Shown piece by piece: positions 28,901 through 35,715 of a stretch of DNA of 64,000 nt. This DNA is from Candidatus Aminicenantes bacterium (GTDB taxonomy: Bacteria > Acidobacteriota > Aminicenantia > Aminicenantales > Saccharicenantaceae). The translations under genes were made by a program, and so were the position numbers. The first letter of the stretch is position 1, and each line of letters begins with the position of its first letter. The stretch covers positions 19,949 through 83,948 of the forward strand of contig JAXDAV010000074.1 in the NCBI GenBank assembly GCA_034679465.1. The letters run 5' to 3'. A model generated the notes under the pieces. It saw only the letters and a program-made list of their open reading frames with translations. It did no database searches and was not told the DNA's origin.

Positions 28901-29197
28901 CAGCGCGATGCCGCAGTTGAGGGCCGTCTGGCCGCCGAACGAGAGCAGGAGGCCCTGGGGCCTCTCCCGGGCGATCACCTTCTTGACGAAGGCCGGCGTC
29001 ACGGGCAGGAAGTAGACCCGGTCGGCCATGCCTTCGGAGGTCTGGATCGTGGCGATGTTGGGGTTGATCAGGACGACGTCGAGGCCCTCCTCCTTGAGGG
29101 CCTTGATGGCCTGGCTGCCGGAGTAGTCGAACTCGCCGGCCTCGCCGATCTTGAGGGCGCCGCTCCCGAGCAGGAGGACCTTCTTCGGCTTCTTCAT
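26000..29197 (-). CDS. carB: carbamoyl-phosphate synthase large subunit
   Basis: 1065 aa with duplicated ATP-grasp halves. N-terminus KKVLLLGSGALKIGEAGEFDYSGSQA. Confidence 0.96.
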   Translation of the reverse strand: MKKPKKVLLLGSGALKIGEAGEFDYSGSQAIKALKEEGLDVVLINPNIATIQTSEGMADRVYFLPVTPAFVKKVIARERPQGLLLSFGGQTALNCGIALWKSGALAEAGLPVLGTPVEAIEKTEDRKLFNRALAQAGLKTPRGLAVRTVEAGLRAAGTIGYPVMARVAYALGGKGSGIAYSPRELREALRRAFTAAPQVLIEEYLDGWKEIEYEVVRDRADNCVTVCNMENFDPMGIHTGESIVIAPSQTLTNDEYHRLRGIALKAVRRLGIVGECNIQYALNPRDGDYRIIEVNARLSRSSALASKATGYPLAFVAAKLALGHTLPDLPNSITKVTAACFEPALDYLVVKIPRWDLKKFGRVSKKIGSEMKSVGEVMAVGRSFEEAIQKAARMLQVGVYGLVANENYSFRSLEKELRQPTDERLFGIAEALKKGLTVDRIHELTRIDRWFLHKIKSVVDCEARLKGRRLGAVGPDLLLEAKRKGFSDKQISLLTGSSELRVRARRKALGLVPAVKQIDTLAAEYPARTNYLYVTYNGREDDVPFRNGRGRPGKVMVLGSGSYSIGSSVEFDWCCVNAALALKKLGYATIMVNYNPETVSTDYDICDRLYFDELSFERVLDIYEKEKPLGVLLSMGGQIPNNIALRCHRAGVRVLGTPPASIDRAEDRFKFSRLLDELGVDQPEWRELRSVAEAKRFARTIGYPVLIRPSYVLSGAAMSVVFNQDYLDRYLQKASRVSPEYPVVISKFILNAKEIELDAVADRGEVTASAIIEHVENAGVHSGDATMVLPPQKLYIETIRRIREIGREIARALAITGPFNIQFIAKDNAIKVIECNLRASRSFPFVSKVARTNFVELAVAAMMGRPAHSHKTTLDLNYVGVKAPQFSFSRLRGADPVLGVEMASTGEVACLGEDVHEAYLKAILSTGFSLPRRNILLTVGGEESKGRFLGAAQTLAGLGYRIFATEKTSAYLKDNGVRNTRLFKVHERRGPNIRDFIAGGRIDLVISIPNPAKRVEYNSAYKLRRLAVDYSIPILTNLQAADLFVQALAAKKPADLAIKHWAEYE

Positions 29198-30312
29198 CCG
29201 GCGGCCTCGAGGAACTCGTCGAAGAGGAACTCGGTGTCGGTCGGGCCGGGGCAGGCCTCGGGGTGGAACTGGACGCCGAAGACGGGCTTGCGGACGCGGC
29301 GGACGCCCTCATTCGTGCCGTCGTTGGCGTTGCGGAACCAGGCGGCCCAGCCGCGCGGCAGGCTCCGCGTGTCGACGGCGAAGCCGTGGTTCTGGCTGGT
29401 GATGTAGCAGCGCTTCGTCCCCTCCTCGAGGCAGGGCTGGTTCTGGCTGCGGTGGCCGAACTTGAGCTTGTAGGTCGACGCGCCGGCGGCCAGGGCCAGG
29501 ATCTGACTGCCGAGACAGATGCCGAAGAGCGGCACGCCCGCGCCGAGGAGGCGGCGGACCGCGGCGATCGCGGCGGCGGCCCGCTCGGGGTCGCCCGGGC
29601 CGTTGGAGAGGACGACGCCCTTTGGGGCGAAGGACAGGATGCGCTCGGCGTCGGAATCGGCCGGGACGCGGACGACCGAGACGCCGCGCCGGACGAGCGA
29701 GCGGACGATGTTCATCTTGGCCCCGCAGTCGACGAGGACGATCGCCCGCCGGGCCTGGGGATTGTAGATGCGGATCTCCGGGGTCGTGACCTCGGCGACG
29801 AGGTCGCGGGCGTTGGGGTCGGGGACCTCCCGGGCCTCGCGGCGCAGCCGGGCCGGGCCCGCCGGGTCGTCGCCGGCGTCGAGGAGCCCGGTCATGACGC
29901 CGTGGACGCGCAGCTTCTTGGTCAGGGCCCGGGTGTCGAGGCCCGCGATTCCCGGGACGCCGCTCTCCCGGAGCCAGTCGTCGACGGTCTTCCGCGAGGT
30001 CGCGTGCGAGGGCCGGGCGCAGAGCTCGGAGACGATGTAGCCGGCGATCTGGGGCCGGTCCGATTCGAAGCGGTCCGGGTCGACGCCGTAGTTGCCGATC
30101 AGGGGATAGGTCTGGCAGAGGATCTGGCCCCGGTAGGACGGGTCGGTGATGCTCTCCGGGTAGCCGACGATCCCGGTATTGAAAACGACTTCCCCCCCGA
30201 TTTTGGCGCTCGCGCCGAAGCCTAGGCCTTCGAGGACGGTCCCGTCCGCGAGGGCCAGCGTTGCTCTGCGAATGAGGTCAGCCTCCGTGTCATTTTCGGG
30301 GCAGTATAGCAC
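29194..30312 (-). CDS. carA: carbamoyl-phosphate synthase small (glutaminase) subunit
   Basis: 372 aa with the catalytic GICLGSQILA Cys and HGFAV, overlapping carB by 4 nt. Confidence 0.95.
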   Translation of the reverse strand: MLYCPENDTEADLIRRATLALADGTVLEGLGFGASAKIGGEVVFNTGIVGYPESITDPSYRGQILCQTYPLIGNYGVDPDRFESDRPQIAGYIVSELCARPSHATSRKTVDDWLRESGVPGIAGLDTRALTKKLRVHGVMTGLLDAGDDPAGPARLRREAREVPDPNARDLVAEVTTPEIRIYNPQARRAIVLVDCGAKMNIVRSLVRRGVSVVRVPADSDAERILSFAPKGVVLSNGPGDPERAAAAIAAVRRLLGAGVPLFGICLGSQILALAAGASTYKLKFGHRSQNQPCLEEGTKRCYITSQNHGFAVDTRSLPRGWAAWFRNANDGTNEGVRRVRKPVFGVQFHPEACPGPTDTEFLFDEFLEAAG

Positions 30313-30456
30313 AAGCCCGGCCGGGCCTCAAGGGCCGGTCGGGGCCGCGGGCCGTCGGGAGGAGGCCGTCTCACCCCTTGAACCCCCGCCGGGGGGCATG
30401 GTATTTTCGTCGCGGAAGAGGATAATGGAGCCGGGAATTGCGCGGTGAGGTGAGCC

Positions 30457-32475
30457 ATGCCTTCTGACGACGGTCACGGGACGACCGGCGCTCCCGAGCG
30501 CCGCGGGCCGGCCTCCCCGTCCGTCCCCCTCCCGGCCGAGAAGGACGAGCTCATCCGCTCGATGACCGTGTCCCTGCGCGTCGCCTTCAAGATGGCCTCG
30601 ATGTACAACGCGGACCATCCGGCCTTCAAGAGCAGCGTCAACGAGCTCATGGCCAAGCTCGAGGCCCTCTTCGCCCACATCAATCCCGTCTCCATCGGCT
30701 TCTCGCCCCACGCCCTGCTCATCGACGGGCGCTTCTGGGAGGGCGAGCGGACCTACATGGACCTGGCCCAGCTCTTCCACTTCCGCAAGATCAAGCGCCT
30801 GGAGATCCGCCCGGGCGTCCCCCACGCCGAGTTCATGCGCTTCGCCTCCAAGATCATGCTGCCGGTCAAGCTCTTCATCAAGGAGGGCGGCGCCCAGGCC
30901 ATCATCAAGCGGGAGACCATCACCCACATCTCCGTGGACACGCTCGACTACTCGGTCCTCCTCCAGGGGGAGGGCGAGGAGATCAAGGAGATCTGGCCCT
31001 ACCTCCTCATGGAGGCCGTCGAAGAGGACGACCGGGGCAAGCTCGAGGAGCTGGCCGGCTCGTTCGGCAAGGTCGTCGGCAAGTTCAACACCGAGGACCT
31101 CATCCAGAACGAGGAGCTGCACAAGAACTTCGCCAAGTTCTTCCACTATCTCAAGACGACCTCCGAGGAGAAGCACCGGGTCGCCTCCAAGCAGCTCCTG
31201 AAGACCATCGTCTCCGCCCGCAAGACGCCGACCGAAACGAAGTTCGAGAACCTCAAGCTCCTCATCTCCGACCTCAGCGAGGAGGACCTGGCCTCGACGC
31301 TCTGGGAGGAGATCATCGGCAACGACAAGTTCGACTCCCTGAGCTTCAGCATTTTCTCCCGGATCATCGACAAGGAGCGGCACAAGAAGATCGCGACCTC
31401 TCTGCACGCCCTGTTCCACACCGAGGACCCCCAGAACCGCCGGGCCCAGACCGAGTCGAAGATCCGCATCCTCATGTCGGGCATGTCCTCGTCGCTCCAC
31501 TCCGAGATCTACCGCCAGACGCTCTCGAGCCTCCTCAACGAGATCTCCTTCGACCAGAAGCTGACCCTCGACCATCAGCTCCTCCGGCGCAACTACCGCT
31601 TCCTCCTCCTGGTCCTGCTGTCGCAGGACGGGCCGAAGGAGACGGCCACGGCCGAGCTGGTCCGCCTGGGCGAGGAGTGGGACGCGGTCCTCCAGGAGAG
31701 CGATTTCGAGTTCCTCCTCGCCCTCCACGAGGTCCTCGAGGCCAAGGCCGCGGACCTGGCCGGCGAGCCGGCCTTCGAGGACCGCCGGAAAGCCATCGCC
31801 GAACACGTCGAAGGCTGCCTCCTGCACGGCGATTCGGGCCCCGAGCTCGACGCCTTCATCGACCGGCTGGGCCGGAGCCTCCATGATCGGGAGGCCTACG
31901 CGGGCACGGTGTTCAAGGACCGGATCGTCTCGGCCTCGCTCCTGAGGGCCTATTTCCGGTTCTTCCCCGACGGGACCGAGGACCTCCACGTCCGGATCAG
32001 GAAGAAGTCCTCCGACAGCGAGCTCCTGGGCCGCATCGCCGACGCCCTGATGCTCATCGACACCCCGGCCTCCCTGGAGACCCTGAAGAAGGTCTTCGAG
32101 GCCGGCGACGCGGGGGTCAAGGTCAAGGCCCTCCAGGCCATGCAGAACCTCAAGGAGCACGACGAGGCCTTCCTCTTCCCCATCCTGGAGAAGCGGAACG
32201 AGCTCATCCAGGCCGAGGCCCTCATCCTGCTCATGCGCCACGAGCGGACGAAGCACGTCGCCTTCACCAAGCTGTTCGGGATCGTCTCGCCCTACGGGCT
32301 GAGGAACAAGACCCTGCTGAGGAACCTCGGCATCGTCGAGCGCTACGGCCTGCGCGAGGCCGCCTCCTATGTCGGGGCGTTGTCCGAGCGCAAGGATTTC
32401 TGGAACCGCAGGGTCCGGCAGGCCGCCGAGGCCCTGATGGCCAAATGGGGACTGGAGATCTGGCGTGAGGGATAA
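30457..32475 (+). CDS. hypothetical all-helical protein (672 aa): sensor-like N-domain paralogous to the downstream HD-GYP protein, plus a HEAT/ARM-like C-terminal region
   Basis: The N-terminal ~130 aa (MYNADHPAFKSSVNELMAKLEALF ... RLEIRPGVPHAEFMRFASKI) align by eye with residues ~15-110 of the next protein. The C-terminus has repeats resembling HEAT (LETLKKVFEAGDAGVKVKALQAMQNL..). No HD or GYP motif is present. Confidence 0.6.
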   Translation: MPSDDGHGTTGAPERRGPASPSVPLPAEKDELIRSMTVSLRVAFKMASMYNADHPAFKSSVNELMAKLEALFAHINPVSIGFSPHALLIDGRFWEGERTYMDLAQLFHFRKIKRLEIRPGVPHAEFMRFASKIMLPVKLFIKEGGAQAIIKRETITHISVDTLDYSVLLQGEGEEIKEIWPYLLMEAVEEDDRGKLEELAGSFGKVVGKFNTEDLIQNEELHKNFAKFFHYLKTTSEEKHRVASKQLLKTIVSARKTPTETKFENLKLLISDLSEEDLASTLWEEIIGNDKFDSLSFSIFSRIIDKERHKKIATSLHALFHTEDPQNRRAQTESKIRILMSGMSSSLHSEIYRQTLSSLLNEISFDQKLTLDHQLLRRNYRFLLLVLLSQDGPKETATAELVRLGEEWDAVLQESDFEFLLALHEVLEAKAADLAGEPAFEDRRKAIAEHVEGCLLHGDSGPELDAFIDRLGRSLHDREAYAGTVFKDRIVSASLLRAYFRFFPDGTEDLHVRIRKKSSDSELLGRIADALMLIDTPASLETLKKVFEAGDAGVKVKALQAMQNLKEHDEAFLFPILEKRNELIQAEALILLMRHERTKHVAFTKLFGIVSPYGLRNKTLLRNLGIVERYGLREAASYVGALSERKDFWNRRVRQAAEALMAKWGLEIWREG

Positions 32476-33874
32476 GATCAAGATCTGCTTCATCTACCTG
32501 ATGAACGCCATCCAGGCGGGGAAGATCTACACCGGCGACCACCCCAAGTTCAAGGAATACCTCAACCGCCTTTACGGCGTCGTCCAGGAGATCCTGGAGG
32601 ACCGCAAGGAGCTCGTCCTCGGCATCATCGGCGGCGAGGCCGCCTGGGAGGACGAGATCTTCTTCCATCTCCGCGGCAAGCTCGGCCTGCTCATCGACTT
32701 CCTGGAGAAGAACGGCGTCGAGCGGATCATCTTCCAGCAGGGCCTGCGCTTCGAGGAGCTGCGCGAGTTCATCATCTTCCTGACCCGGGTGAAGCGGCAG
32801 GAGAAGATCAGCGAGCAGGAGTATTTCAATCTCCACGGCATCCAGAACATCCGGGCCGGCAAGCTCCGGACCATGGTCCGCGACGAGGCCATCGCGCCGG
32901 AGGTCGAGGAGACGCGGACCCGCTACGAGAGCTCCGTCCACACCGTCTCGAACGCCCTCAACGTCGTCCTCGAGCGCGAGGAGGTCGACTATCTCGACCT
33001 GCGCTTCAACGTCCTGGGCATCATGGAGGACTTCGTCGGCCGCCACCAGGAGCTCCTCAACCTCGTCTCGGTCAAGAGGCGCGACCTGGTGACGTTCGTC
33101 CACCTCCTCAACGTCACCCTGCTCTCCATGTTCTTCGCCTCCAAGCTCCAGTTCTCCAAGGACGACGTCCTCGACCTGGGCATCGCCGCGCTCTACCACG
33201 ACGTCGGCAAGCTCTACATCTCGCTCAAGGTCATCCAGAAGGAGTCGAAGCTCTCCGAGGGCGAGTTCCTCCAGGTCCGCAACCACCCCCTCCTCGGGGC
33301 CCGCATCCTCGAGGGCTACAAGGACGCCCTGGGCATCCTGCCGATCGTCGTCTGCTACGAGCACCACCTCCGCCACGACCTGACCGGCTATCCCAAGTCG
33401 CCCTACGCCCGGCGGCCCCACCCGGCCTCGATGATGGTCAGCATCTGCGACGTCTACGACGCCCTGGCCCTGAAGCGGTCCTACAAGAAGGATTACCCGC
33501 CCGAGAAGATCCACGAGCTCATGATGCTCGAGCGGGGCAAGATCTTCGATCCCCAGCTCCTGGACAAGTTCTTCCAGTTCATGGGCGTCTGGCCGATCGG
33601 GACGCTCGTGGCCATGAGCGACGGCCGGGTCGGCGTCGTCCGGGCCGTGAACGAGGCCGACATCGACCGGCCGTCCGTCCAGGTCCTGGCCCCGGAGAAC
33701 GCCGGCGAGATCGTCGACCTGGCCTTGCGGCCGGACGTCCGCGTCGTCGGGTCCCTGAACCCGCAGGCCGAGGGGGCGCCTTACCTGCCGCTCCTCGGCC
33801 TCCCGGCGCCGGCGGAGGCCGAGGCCGGCGATGACGGCCGGGGCGGCGAAGACGACGAACCGGATATGGAGTAA
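32465..33874 (+). CDS. HD-GYP domain protein (putative c-di-GMP phosphodiesterase) with an uncharacterised N-terminal domain
   Basis: 469 aa with a GTG start that overlaps the upstream stop by 11 nt. Motifs AALYHDVGK and EHHLRHDLTGYP (HHx3Dx2GYP) and DVYDAL. Confidence 0.85.
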   Translation: MRDKIKICFIYLMNAIQAGKIYTGDHPKFKEYLNRLYGVVQEILEDRKELVLGIIGGEAAWEDEIFFHLRGKLGLLIDFLEKNGVERIIFQQGLRFEELREFIIFLTRVKRQEKISEQEYFNLHGIQNIRAGKLRTMVRDEAIAPEVEETRTRYESSVHTVSNALNVVLEREEVDYLDLRFNVLGIMEDFVGRHQELLNLVSVKRRDLVTFVHLLNVTLLSMFFASKLQFSKDDVLDLGIAALYHDVGKLYISLKVIQKESKLSEGEFLQVRNHPLLGARILEGYKDALGILPIVVCYEHHLRHDLTGYPKSPYARRPHPASMMVSICDVYDALALKRSYKKDYPPEKIHELMMLERGKIFDPQLLDKFFQFMGVWPIGTLVAMSDGRVGVVRAVNEADIDRPSVQVLAPENAGEIVDLALRPDVRVVGSLNPQAEGAPYLPLLGLPAPAEAEAGDDGRGGEDDEPDME

Positions 33875-33885
33875 AGGAGACCGAC

Positions 33886-35715
33886 ATGTGCGGCATCATC
33901 GGCTGTTCCGGCGCCCGGGACACCGTTCCCGATCTCATCGAGGGGCTGCGGCGGCTCGAGTATCGCGGCTACGATTCGGCCGGCATCGCCGTCCTCAACG
34001 GCGGCGGGCTCGAGCGGCGGCGGGTCAAAGGCAAGGTCCGCGACCTGGCCGAAGAGGTCCGCCGGCGCCCGATCTCGGGCGCCTGCGGCATCGGGCACAC
34101 CCGCTGGGCCACCCACGGCCGTCCGAGCGAGGACAACGCCCACCCGCACACCGACTGCAGCGGAACGATCGCCCTCCTCCACAACGGCATCGTCGAGAAC
34201 TACTGGGCCCTCAAGGAGAGGCTGAGGGCCGAGGGCCACGTCTTCAAGACCGAGACGGACACCGAGGTCATCGTCCACCTGGTCGAAAAGCACTTCCGCG
34301 GCTCCCTCGAGGAGGCCCTCCGGGCCGCCGTCCGGGAGCTCGAAGGGGCCTTCGCCGTGGCCTGCATCTCGTCGCGCGATCCGGGCAAGATCGTCGCCGC
34401 CCGCAACGGCCCGCCGGTCGTCGTCGGCTTCGGCGACGGCGAGAGCTTCCTGTCCTCGGACCTCACGCCTCTGCTGGCCCACACCAAGCGCGTGGCCTAT
34501 CTGGGCGACGGCGAGGTCGCCGTCCTGACGGCGGCGGCGGTCCGCTTCGCCAGCTTTGCCGGGGCCCCGGTCGGGAAGACGGTCGAGACCCTCGACTGGG
34601 AGCCGGCCATGATCGAGAAGCGCGGCTTCGCCCACTTCATGTCCAAGGAGATCTTCGAGCAGGCGGACGTCGTCCGCGACACCCTCAAGAGCCGGGTCTC
34701 GCTCGACTCCGGGCGGGTCTTCCTCGACGACACCGGCCTCGACCCGGCGGCCTTCCGCGAGGCCTCGCGGGTCGTCCTCATCGCCTGCGGCACGTCTTAC
34801 CACGCCGGCCTCGTCGGGAAGTACCTCATCGAGACGCTGGCCCGCGTCCCGGTCGACGTCGAGTACGCCTCGGAGCTGCGCTCGCGCGACTTCGTCATGG
34901 ATCGCGGGACGCTCGTCCTCGGCATCTCCCAGTCGGGCGAGACGGCCGACACGCTGGCCGCCCTCCGCCTGGCCCGGGACAAGGCCCGGGCCGTCCTGGC
35001 CGTCACCAACAATCCGAGGTCCTCGATGGCCCGGGACGCGGACGGCCTCCTCGACCTCCACGCCGGGCCGGAAATCGGCGTCGCCGCGACCAAGACGTTC
35101 GTCGGCCAGATGGCCGCCCTGGCCCTCTTCGCCCTGGCCCTGGCCCAGGCCCGCGGCGCCCTCGGCGAGGAGGAGAGCCGGGCCCTCGTCCGGGAGCTCC
35201 AGCGCGTGCCGCTCAAGATGGACCGGGTCCTCGGCGGGGCCGCCGCCGTCGAGCGGGCCGCCCGCCGCTATCTCTCCTGCGAGCACTACCTCTTCCTCGG
35301 CCGCTGGATCAACTTCCCCATCGCCCTCGAAGGGGCCCTGAAGCTCAAGGAGATCTCCTACACCCACGCCGAAGGCTACGCCGGCGGGGAGATGAAGCAC
35401 GGGCCCATCGCCCTCATCGACGAGGGCATGACCACCCTGGCCGTCGTGCCGCGCGACCGCGTCCACGAGAAGATGCTGTCCAACATCGCCGAGGTGAAGG
35501 CGAGGAACGGCCGGATCCTGGCCGTCGCCTTCGAGGGCGACGAGCGGGCCGGGGCCGCGGCCGAGGAGGTCTTCCCCATCCCGGAGACCCACGAGCTGTT
35601 CACGCCGTTCCTGACCGTCCTGCCCCTTCAGCTCTTCGCCTACCATTCCGCCTCGGGCAAGGGCCTCGACGTCGACCAGCCGCGCAACCTGGCCAAAAGC
35701 GTCACCGTCGAATGA
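33886..35715 (+). CDS. glmS: glutamine--fructose-6-phosphate aminotransferase
   Basis: 609 aa with Ntn MCGIIG, two SIS domains and the C-terminal KSVTVE. Confidence 0.96.
   Translation: MCGIIGCSGARDTVPDLIEGLRRLEYRGYDSAGIAVLNGGGLERRRVKGKVRDLAEEVRRRPISGACGIGHTRWATHGRPSEDNAHPHTDCSGTIALLHNGIVENYWALKERLRAEGHVFKTETDTEVIVHLVEKHFRGSLEEALRAAVRELEGAFAVACISSRDPGKIVAARNGPPVVVGFGDGESFLSSDLTPLLAHTKRVAYLGDGEVAVLTAAAVRFASFAGAPVGKTVETLDWEPAMIEKRGFAHFMSKEIFEQADVVRDTLKSRVSLDSGRVFLDDTGLDPAAFREASRVVLIACGTSYHAGLVGKYLIETLARVPVDVEYASELRSRDFVMDRGTLVLGISQSGETADTLAALRLARDKARAVLAVTNNPRSSMARDADGLLDLHAGPEIGVAATKTFVGQMAALALFALALAQARGALGEEESRALVRELQRVPLKMDRVLGGAAAVERAARRYLSCEHYLFLGRWINFPIALEGALKLKEISYTHAEGYAGGEMKHGPIALIDEGMTTLAVVPRDRVHEKMLSNIAEVKARNGRILAVAFEGDERAGAAAEEVFPIPETHELFTPFLTVLPLQLFAYHSASGKGLDVDQPRNLAKSVTVE

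Follow-up and report, generated by a model that had tools for sequence, protein, structure and literature searches.

In a genome of Candidatus Aminicenantes bacterium (Acidobacteriota), two overlapping genes encode proteins that begin with the same N-terminal domain (ND) and differ in everything that follows it. The genes lie on contig JAXDAV010000074.1, within a window of 64,000 nucleotides (nt), which is the whole stretch of DNA that was analysed and to which all coordinates of the pair refer. The protein of 672 amino acids (aa) is called A1, and the protein of 469 aa is called B1. Close homologues bear the name Candidatus Aminicenantes. The homology of their NDs is real, and the pairing of A-type with B-type genes is obligate and translationally coupled. 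Past its ND, B1 appears to be an active HD-GYP phosphodiesterase, and the remainder of A1 models as an alpha-solenoid. The reading that we hold, with moderate confidence, is that A1 and B1 form a heterodimeric phosphodiesterase of cyclic di-GMP (c-di-GMP), joined via the two NDs, in which the HEAT subunit acts as a regulator or scaffold. The catalytic half of B1 is that of an ordinary HD-GYP enzyme. What is new is the uncatalogued input domain, which is found again on a HEAT-repeat protein that is the enzyme's obligate partner. The genes and their junction are as follows.

30457..32475, + strand: A1, ATG start; ND plus HEAT-like alpha-solenoid, 672 aa, predicted non-catalytic partner protein
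32465..33874, + strand: B1, GTG start; ND plus predicted HD-GYP phosphodiesterase, 469 aa
32454..32475, + strand: junction with translational coupling; GGAG at 32454-57, B1 GTG at 32465-67, A1 stop codon TAA at 32473-75

An obligate pair of genes

The reading frame of B1 overlaps the end of A1 by 11 nt, so that the A1 stop codon lies inside B1, and the GGAG is found 7 nt 5' of the B1 GTG. A preliminary description of this DNA had given two genes with this overlap and a GTG start at 32465, and the coordinates were exactly reproduced. The arrangement was then followed in metagenome loci with A1-type genes of 27–91% identity and at least 600 nt of DNA behind the gene. A B1-type gene comes directly after the A1-type gene in 66/66 of these loci, and in every one of them conservation is higher for B than for A. 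The overlap measures 8–17 nt in 65/66 loci (11 nt in 52, 17 nt in 9 and 8 nt in 4), and 65/66 relatives have a start codon where the first residue of B1 aligns (GTG in 40, ATG in 24, TTG in 1). Because the start codon and the overlap are kept among these related loci, the gene models are sound, and so is the translational coupling.

The same genome contains a second pair on contig C32 at 111046-107691 (- strand; loci L002/L004). Its first protein, A2 (624 aa), is an ND-HEAT protein with a confident match to Pfam HEAT_2 (E 6.7e-14), and its second, B2 (489 aa), is an ND-HD-GYP protein. The two genes are 11 nt apart and lie downstream of rhamnulokinase-like and sugar-isomerase-like genes. A1, B1, A2 and B2 are the only ND proteins of the genome, in which HD-GYP proteins number five in total. 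Among genome loci found with A2, an HD-GYP gene stands right after the HEAT gene in 74/80, and in five of the six exceptions the end of the contig is reached. The sixth, L075 (JBGLNH010000001.1), is the sole locus with ample downstream DNA yet no HD-GYP gene behind the A2-type gene; the match of this gene to the query is confined to residues 2-278, and the gene may be rearranged. The two surveys bear out the co-occurrence of the two genes, which the preliminary description had put forward as a check.

The pair extends beyond close relatives. In other families of Acidobacteriota, an ND + HEAT protein of 740–1040 aa is followed by an ND + HD-GYP protein of ~460 aa, sometimes with two pairs in tandem, and the same A-then-B arrangement is found in Desulfobacteraceae (L083, L084). 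Tandem A-B-A-B arrangements were seen in some Aminicenantes and other Acidobacteriota (L016, L025, L087, L088, L089). Since such tandem loci exist and this genome holds two pairs, the A/B pair duplicates as a unit. In Thermodesulfobacteriota, the ND was detected in 111/251 sampled genomes (44%), and the number of copies per genome is even in 82/111 (two in 59, four in 20, six in 2 and eight in 1). The copies are typically separated by ~1.7 kb, share a strand and belong to frames of ~590 and ~490 aa.

The shared N-terminal domain

The NDs of the two proteins, delimited by hhalign, AlphaFold2 (AF2) models and conservation, occupy the following positions.

30535..30942, + strand: ND of A1 (residues 27-162), with Y50-x3-H54-P55 ... 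G120-x4-E125-F-x2-F129
32468..32860, + strand: ND of B1 (residues 2-132), with Y22-x3-H26-P27 ... G93-x4-E98-L-x2-F102

Pairwise BLASTP of the A1 and B1 N-termini gave a marginal match (E 0.001 over 40 aa), and shallow profiles gave a probability of 15% (E 0.0018). The family alignments were deepened with 160 fetched loci before the profile-profile comparison with hhalign. With the deep profiles, A1 33-164 aligned with B1 5-135 at 94.7% (E 5.8e-8, 130 columns), the ND of A1 with that of B2 at 95.7%, the ND of B1 with that of A2 at 97.6%, and B1 with B2 at 100%. Plain BLASTP connects the N-terminus of B1 with that of A2 at E 3e-7. Additionally, a hidden Markov model (HMM) made from B1 relatives alone was run against all six-frame open reading frames of at least 100 aa in the genome, and it recovered only B1, A2 (6e-8), A1 (1e-3) and B2 (0.14). 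The AF2 models of A1 27-162 and B1 2-132 share the element order a1-a2-b1-b2-b3-a3-b4-a4-a5-b5, with a predicted local distance difference test (pLDDT) score of ~90 across the region. The common signature of the domain consists of Y-x3-H-P at the a1/a2 turn and G-x4-E-[LF]-x2-F at b4/a4. Three independent lines of evidence settle the homology: the genome's second pair, the deep profiles together with the genome-wide HMM, and the equal order of elements in the AF2 models. The earlier claim that both proteins begin with the same domain is therefore confirmed.

No model in Pfam or NCBIfam matches the ND, and a profile search against PDB sequences gave chance matches only, e.g., to the designed Octarellin. 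In Foldseek searches with the whole AF2 models, HD-GYP matches dominate for B1 and solenoids for A1. The identification of the ND as DUF3391 (PF11871) was rejected: the Pfam model has no match at E ≤1 in A1, B1, A2 or B2, and a whole-genome DUF3391 search matched none of the four ND loci. The topology argues in the same direction, as the ND comprises ~135 residues that open with two long helices, whereas the N-domain of the DUF3391 protein Bd1817 has a PH-like beta fold. A GAF domain, which is built on a six-strand sheet (PMC4159591), was rejected on the lack of a GAF match in Pfam and on the element order; a distant relation in fold may still exist, as no fold search was made with the isolated domain.

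In a tree of the ND (111 columns), the A1-, B1-, A2- and B2-type domains form four separate, well-supported clades, and A1 is not grouped with B1. The deep order of these clades is unsettled because the tree is limited to 111 columns. The clades of the A and B types are old and distinct, so a recent local tandem duplication of A1 and B1 is rejected, and with it the term “tandem paralogous”, as far as it was meant in that sense in the preliminary description.

The ND belongs to a large family. With a profile of 114 positions, 6449 representative clusters, defined at 50% identity, were matched at E ≤1e-3 and 1199 at E ≤1e-10, and architectures were classified for the best 150 of the 6449. Among these 150, the domain occurs as ND + HEAT (~600 aa), as ND + HD-GYP (~480 aa) and as ND-ND-HEAT. 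Single-chain ND-HEAT-ND-HD(-GYP) proteins of 1200–1800 aa account for 10 of the best 150 clusters. Six proteins of ~1400 aa (P0441, P0451, P0467, P0474, P0489, P0500) have the architecture GGDEF-AAA_16-ND-ND-HEAT, AAA_16 being a STAND-like NTPase. In these proteins, the ND-HEAT module shares its chain with a diguanylate cyclase in place of a pairing with a phosphodiesterase. The gene pairs, the fusions, and the ND-ND and GGDEF-linked architectures lead to two conclusions: the ND is nearly always present as two copies, be it in a pair of genes, in a fused chain or as a tandem, and it is tied to the enzymes that make or break c-di-GMP. As a separate observation, the ND-HEAT-ND-HD-GYP fusions P0387, P0411 and P0444 carry an extra N-terminal stretch of 340–620 aa without a Pfam match.

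The enzyme, the solenoid protein and the flanking genes

Behind its ND, B1 is divided into three parts.

32891..33061, + strand: helical linker from the ND to the catalytic domain (residues 143-199), from AF2
33086..33580, + strand: HD-GYP domain (residues 208-372), with D207, H213, H245-D246, K249, H274, H300-H301, G308-Y309-P310, D329 and D332
33596..33760, + strand: C-terminal five-strand beta domain (residues ~378-432), from AF2; conserved in B1- and B2-type proteins

In Pfam, residues 211-365 of B1 match HD with 43.7 bits (cut-off 22) and HD_5 with 38.7 bits (cut-off 27.2), and the motifs HDVGK (245-249) and EHHLRHDLTGYP (299-310) are present. The best relatives in the PDB by sequence are PmGH, V-cGAP3, PA4781 and DvhD, and the best match of all is PmGH, a GAF-HD-GYP protein of Persephonella marina (PDB 4MCW; PMC4159591; sequence E 1.5e-20, Foldseek E 1.8e-8). 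B1 residues D207, H213, H245/D246, K249, H274, H300/H301, D329 and D332 align with D183, H189, H221/D222, K225, H250, H276/H277, D305 and D308 of PmGH, and the GYP is kept. The aligned catalytic and metal residues and the GYP are invariant in the 66 relatives. Overall, 7/8 of the metal ligands of PmGH, the catalytic Asp/Lys pair and the GYP motif are present in B1. The triplet at the E185 position of PmGH reads V-T-F in B1 and Y-T-L in B2, and not the E/D-T-G by which the eight-ligand trinuclear subfamily is recognised. These residues place B1 and B2 in the seven-ligand Tyr/Phe-type subfamily of HD-GYP proteins, which Bellini et al. (PMC4159591) expect to be binuclear. Foldseek assigned a probability of 1.00 to the matches of the B1 model (pLDDT 80.6) with 4mcw, 4r8z, 3tm8 and 9rbz, and the structures of PmGH, PA4781 and DvhD were matched. 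The Pfam families, the motifs and the fold all agree with the first assignment of an intact HD-GYP domain to the downstream protein.

The C-terminal beta domain of B1 has a single family match, to DUF7030, below the threshold. A motif, GVxPVGTLVxLxxGExGxV...RPxVK, runs through this domain in B1- and B2-type proteins, and the domain may have a role in ligand or partner binding.

A1 is the less familiar of the two proteins. It has no significant sequence match in Pfam, NCBIfam or the PDB, and its similarity to Pfam HEAT_2 (14 bits, E 0.063) lies below the cut-off of 27.7. Its long C-terminal part is described by one feature.

30982..32469, + strand: predicted alpha-solenoid of A1 (residues 176-671), all-alpha in AF2; with homology to the helical/HEAT part of canonical partners

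The A1 family aligns with the A2 family over 518 columns (hhalign, 97.3%, E 1.6e-11). The Foldseek neighbours of A1 are SF3B1, CRM1, PP2A PR65 (1b3u) and beta-catenin. No full-length A1-type protein was found outside the order to which A1 belongs. On this evidence, A1 is a fast-evolving and divergent full-length member of the ND + HEAT family. It had been described as lacking a catalytic motif and as having helical repeats of the HEAT/ARM type, which fits both the AF2 solenoid and the homology with the A2 family. The suggestion that it is a pseudo-enzyme was rejected: A1 aligns with the B families over the ND only (hhalign), there is no HD-GYP similarity outside it, and the rest aligns with the HEAT partners. 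Because the 518-column alignment is with canonical ND + HEAT_2 proteins, A1 is judged to be of the scaffold or adaptor type and not a decayed enzyme.

The pair is flanked by a leader and by two genes that provide context only.

29194..30312, - strand: carA, divergent neighbour upstream of A1; outside the module
30313..30456, + strand: leader of the pair, a 144-nt intergenic region with the Shine-Dalgarno-like GGTGAGGTGAG right before the A1 ATG
33886..35715, + strand: glmS, starting 11 nt past the B1 stop codon, with its own AGGAG

A sigma-70-like promoter was not found on the + strand of the leader (30313..30456), and there is no terminator between B1 and glmS (33872-33888). It is probable that glmS is co-transcribed with the pair here. 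carA/carB are divergent and lie upstream of the pair, so the earlier statement that the pair is divergent from carAB is true at this locus, but the arrangement is kept only in close relatives. carA upstream together with glmS downstream occurs only in relatives with an A1 identity of at least 73%, and more distant pairs are flanked otherwise. The carA/glmS neighbourhood is lineage-specific and outside the module, and a functional tie of the pair to glmS or carAB was rejected because these neighbours are limited to such relatives. A protein of 817 aa in the database, P0159, has the appearance of B1 joined to a GlmS amidotransferase domain; it may reflect a lost stop codon or an artefact of gene calling.

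How the pair may work, and its counterparts in known systems

According to the proposed mechanism, A1 and B1 would be made from one transcript by coupled translation, and the ND of A1 would pair with the ND of B1. The resulting heterodimer would replace the homodimer that the N-domains drive in PmGH. Pairing of the NDs would set the HEAT-like solenoid of A1 beside the catalytic subunit, where the solenoid, as a regulatory or scaffolding subunit, may bind another protein or a signal, or may position the enzyme. The ND:ND contact, the direction of the regulation, and c-di-GMP rather than another cyclic dinucleotide as the substrate are what we infer from the arrangement of the proteins. The heterodimer is favoured because of the fusions, which are of the Rosetta-stone kind, the ND-ND tandems, the 66/66 pairing, the duplication of the pair as a unit and the precedent of PmGH, whose dimer is built solely by the N-terminal domain and a long connecting helix (PMC4159591). 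The natural A-B fusions and the ND-ND tandem proteins lend indirect backing to the proposed heterodimerisation mediated by the ND.

Several points weigh against this heterodimer. There are effectively ~61 distinct ND sequences, too few for co-variation analysis. Adjacency, fusion and paired copies are also expected if A and B do no more than respond to one ligand or work one after the other. The conserved Tyr, His and Glu of the ND could belong to a site for a ligand and not to an interface, and the age and separateness of the A- and B-type clades mean that there is no recent signal of co-conversion toward a contact. On the side of the enzyme, the position of E185, the eighth metal ligand of PmGH, is taken by V209 in B1, which makes activity and substrate less certain. 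The main rival explanation builds on some of the same facts. In it, the ND senses a small molecule or the redox state, and A1 and B1, each binding the same signal on its own, are each homodimeric and co-expressed in one pathway without touching. HD-GYP proteins usually have a sensor module such as GAF, REC or PAS as their N-terminal domain (PMC4159591), the Tyr/His/Glu set is conserved in A- and B-type NDs, and these NDs form old, separate clades, all of which would suit two parallel sensors. The Tyr/His/Glu set itself fits the pairing and the sensor readings alike. Independent sensors would need neither the occurrence of the ND in twos in the gene pair, nor the end-to-end fusion, nor the ND-ND tandem, and the strictly conserved overlap of the genes suggests that the two proteins are synthesised together in equimolar amounts. 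For these reasons, parallel sensors seem rather unlikely to us.

It is also conceivable that A1 is a receptor or target of c-di-GMP with the solenoid as its output, that B1 only sets the local level of the nucleotide, and that the shared ND tags both proteins for localisation to the same third partner. Specific pairs of a phosphodiesterase and an effector are established in local signalling, and ND-HEAT modules are fused to both HD-GYP and GGDEF, as may be expected of a unit that is either reading or served by c-di-GMP. Nevertheless, no known motif for c-di-GMP binding and no PilZ, MshEN or I-site-bearing family was found for A1 in Pfam/NCBIfam, there is no third conserved neighbour gene, and the flanks vary by lineage; an enzyme with its own effector is thus judged improbable. 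The possibility that the similarity of the NDs arises from chance or composition, with the genes merely being neighbours, could appeal to the BLASTP value of 0.001 over 40 residues and to the 15% of the shallow profiles. It is hardly credible, as it is refuted by the deep profiles (94.7–97.6%), the genome-wide HMM, the equal topology, the 66/66 adjacency and the natural fusions. Membership in an anti-phage defence system was rejected as well: among the PADLOC defence models, A1 has no match, and B1 matches only Cas3, through a generic HD similarity (E 7e-4).

Of the c-di-GMP phosphodiesterases, those of the HD-GYP class are understood least. To our knowledge, their regulation has been described only for single-chain sensor fusions, e.g., with REC, GAF or PAS. 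If the NDs pair as the heterodimer requires, the A1/B1 pair would represent a new holoenzyme design for the turnover of a second messenger and a new protein-protein interaction domain, and a function could be assigned to thousands of proteins that are now called “hypothetical” or “HEAT repeat”. We further put forward, as a tentative idea, that ND-HEAT proteins are a general, hitherto unrecognised class of accessory subunits for c-di-GMP enzymes, in which the ND is a hetero-pairing domain that docks a solenoid, and the solenoid gates an HD-GYP or fused GGDEF enzyme. If that is true, thousands of bacteria would control the turnover of c-di-GMP by a holoenzyme of a catalytic subunit and a HEAT scaffold, similar to PP2A. 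A search of the literature for HD-GYP with HEAT repeats, or for GGDEF/HEAT/STAND, found nothing describing this design, and it had been noted before that the pair could not be matched to any characterised regulatory design, which agrees with the Pfam, NCBIfam and PDB searches.

The known systems each resemble the pair in part. In the PP2A holoenzyme, which is an analogy only, the HEAT scaffold PR65/A is the non-catalytic partner of a metallo-phosphohydrolase. The homology between PP2A and A1/B1 is limited to the generic solenoid, and the partners in PP2A have no common domain. The DUF3391-HD-GYP protein Bd1817 (PDB 3TM8; PMC3188283) is like B1 in its order of an uncharacterised N-domain, the helices of a linker and an HD-GYP domain. 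A role in protein-protein interaction has been proposed for the N-domain of Bd1817, which has a PH-like beta fold of 78 residues (PMC3188283). Bd1817 is inactive, with the Tyr of its GYP missing, whereas B1 keeps the GYP. PA4781 of P. aeruginosa (PDB 4R8Z) is grouped here with the Tyr/Phe seven-ligand subfamily, which B1 and B2 resemble in having no carboxylate at the E185 position of PmGH and retaining the other seven ligands, and the B1 model can be superposed on PA4781 with a root-mean-square deviation of 3.7 Å over 171 columns. Unlike B1, PA4781 has REC as its input domain and lacks a dedicated gene for a partner. The closest likeness is to PmGH, in which, as in B1, an N-terminal alpha/beta domain is followed by a long helical linker and the HD-GYP domain, and the linker of B1 has its analogue in the long helix that PmGH uses for dimerisation (PMC4159591). 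PmGH has an E-T-G eight-ligand trinuclear site, where B1 has V-T-F at the same triplet. PmGH is a homodimer with GAF domains, whereas the N-domain of B1 is not GAF, and a second gene supplies another ND on a HEAT solenoid.

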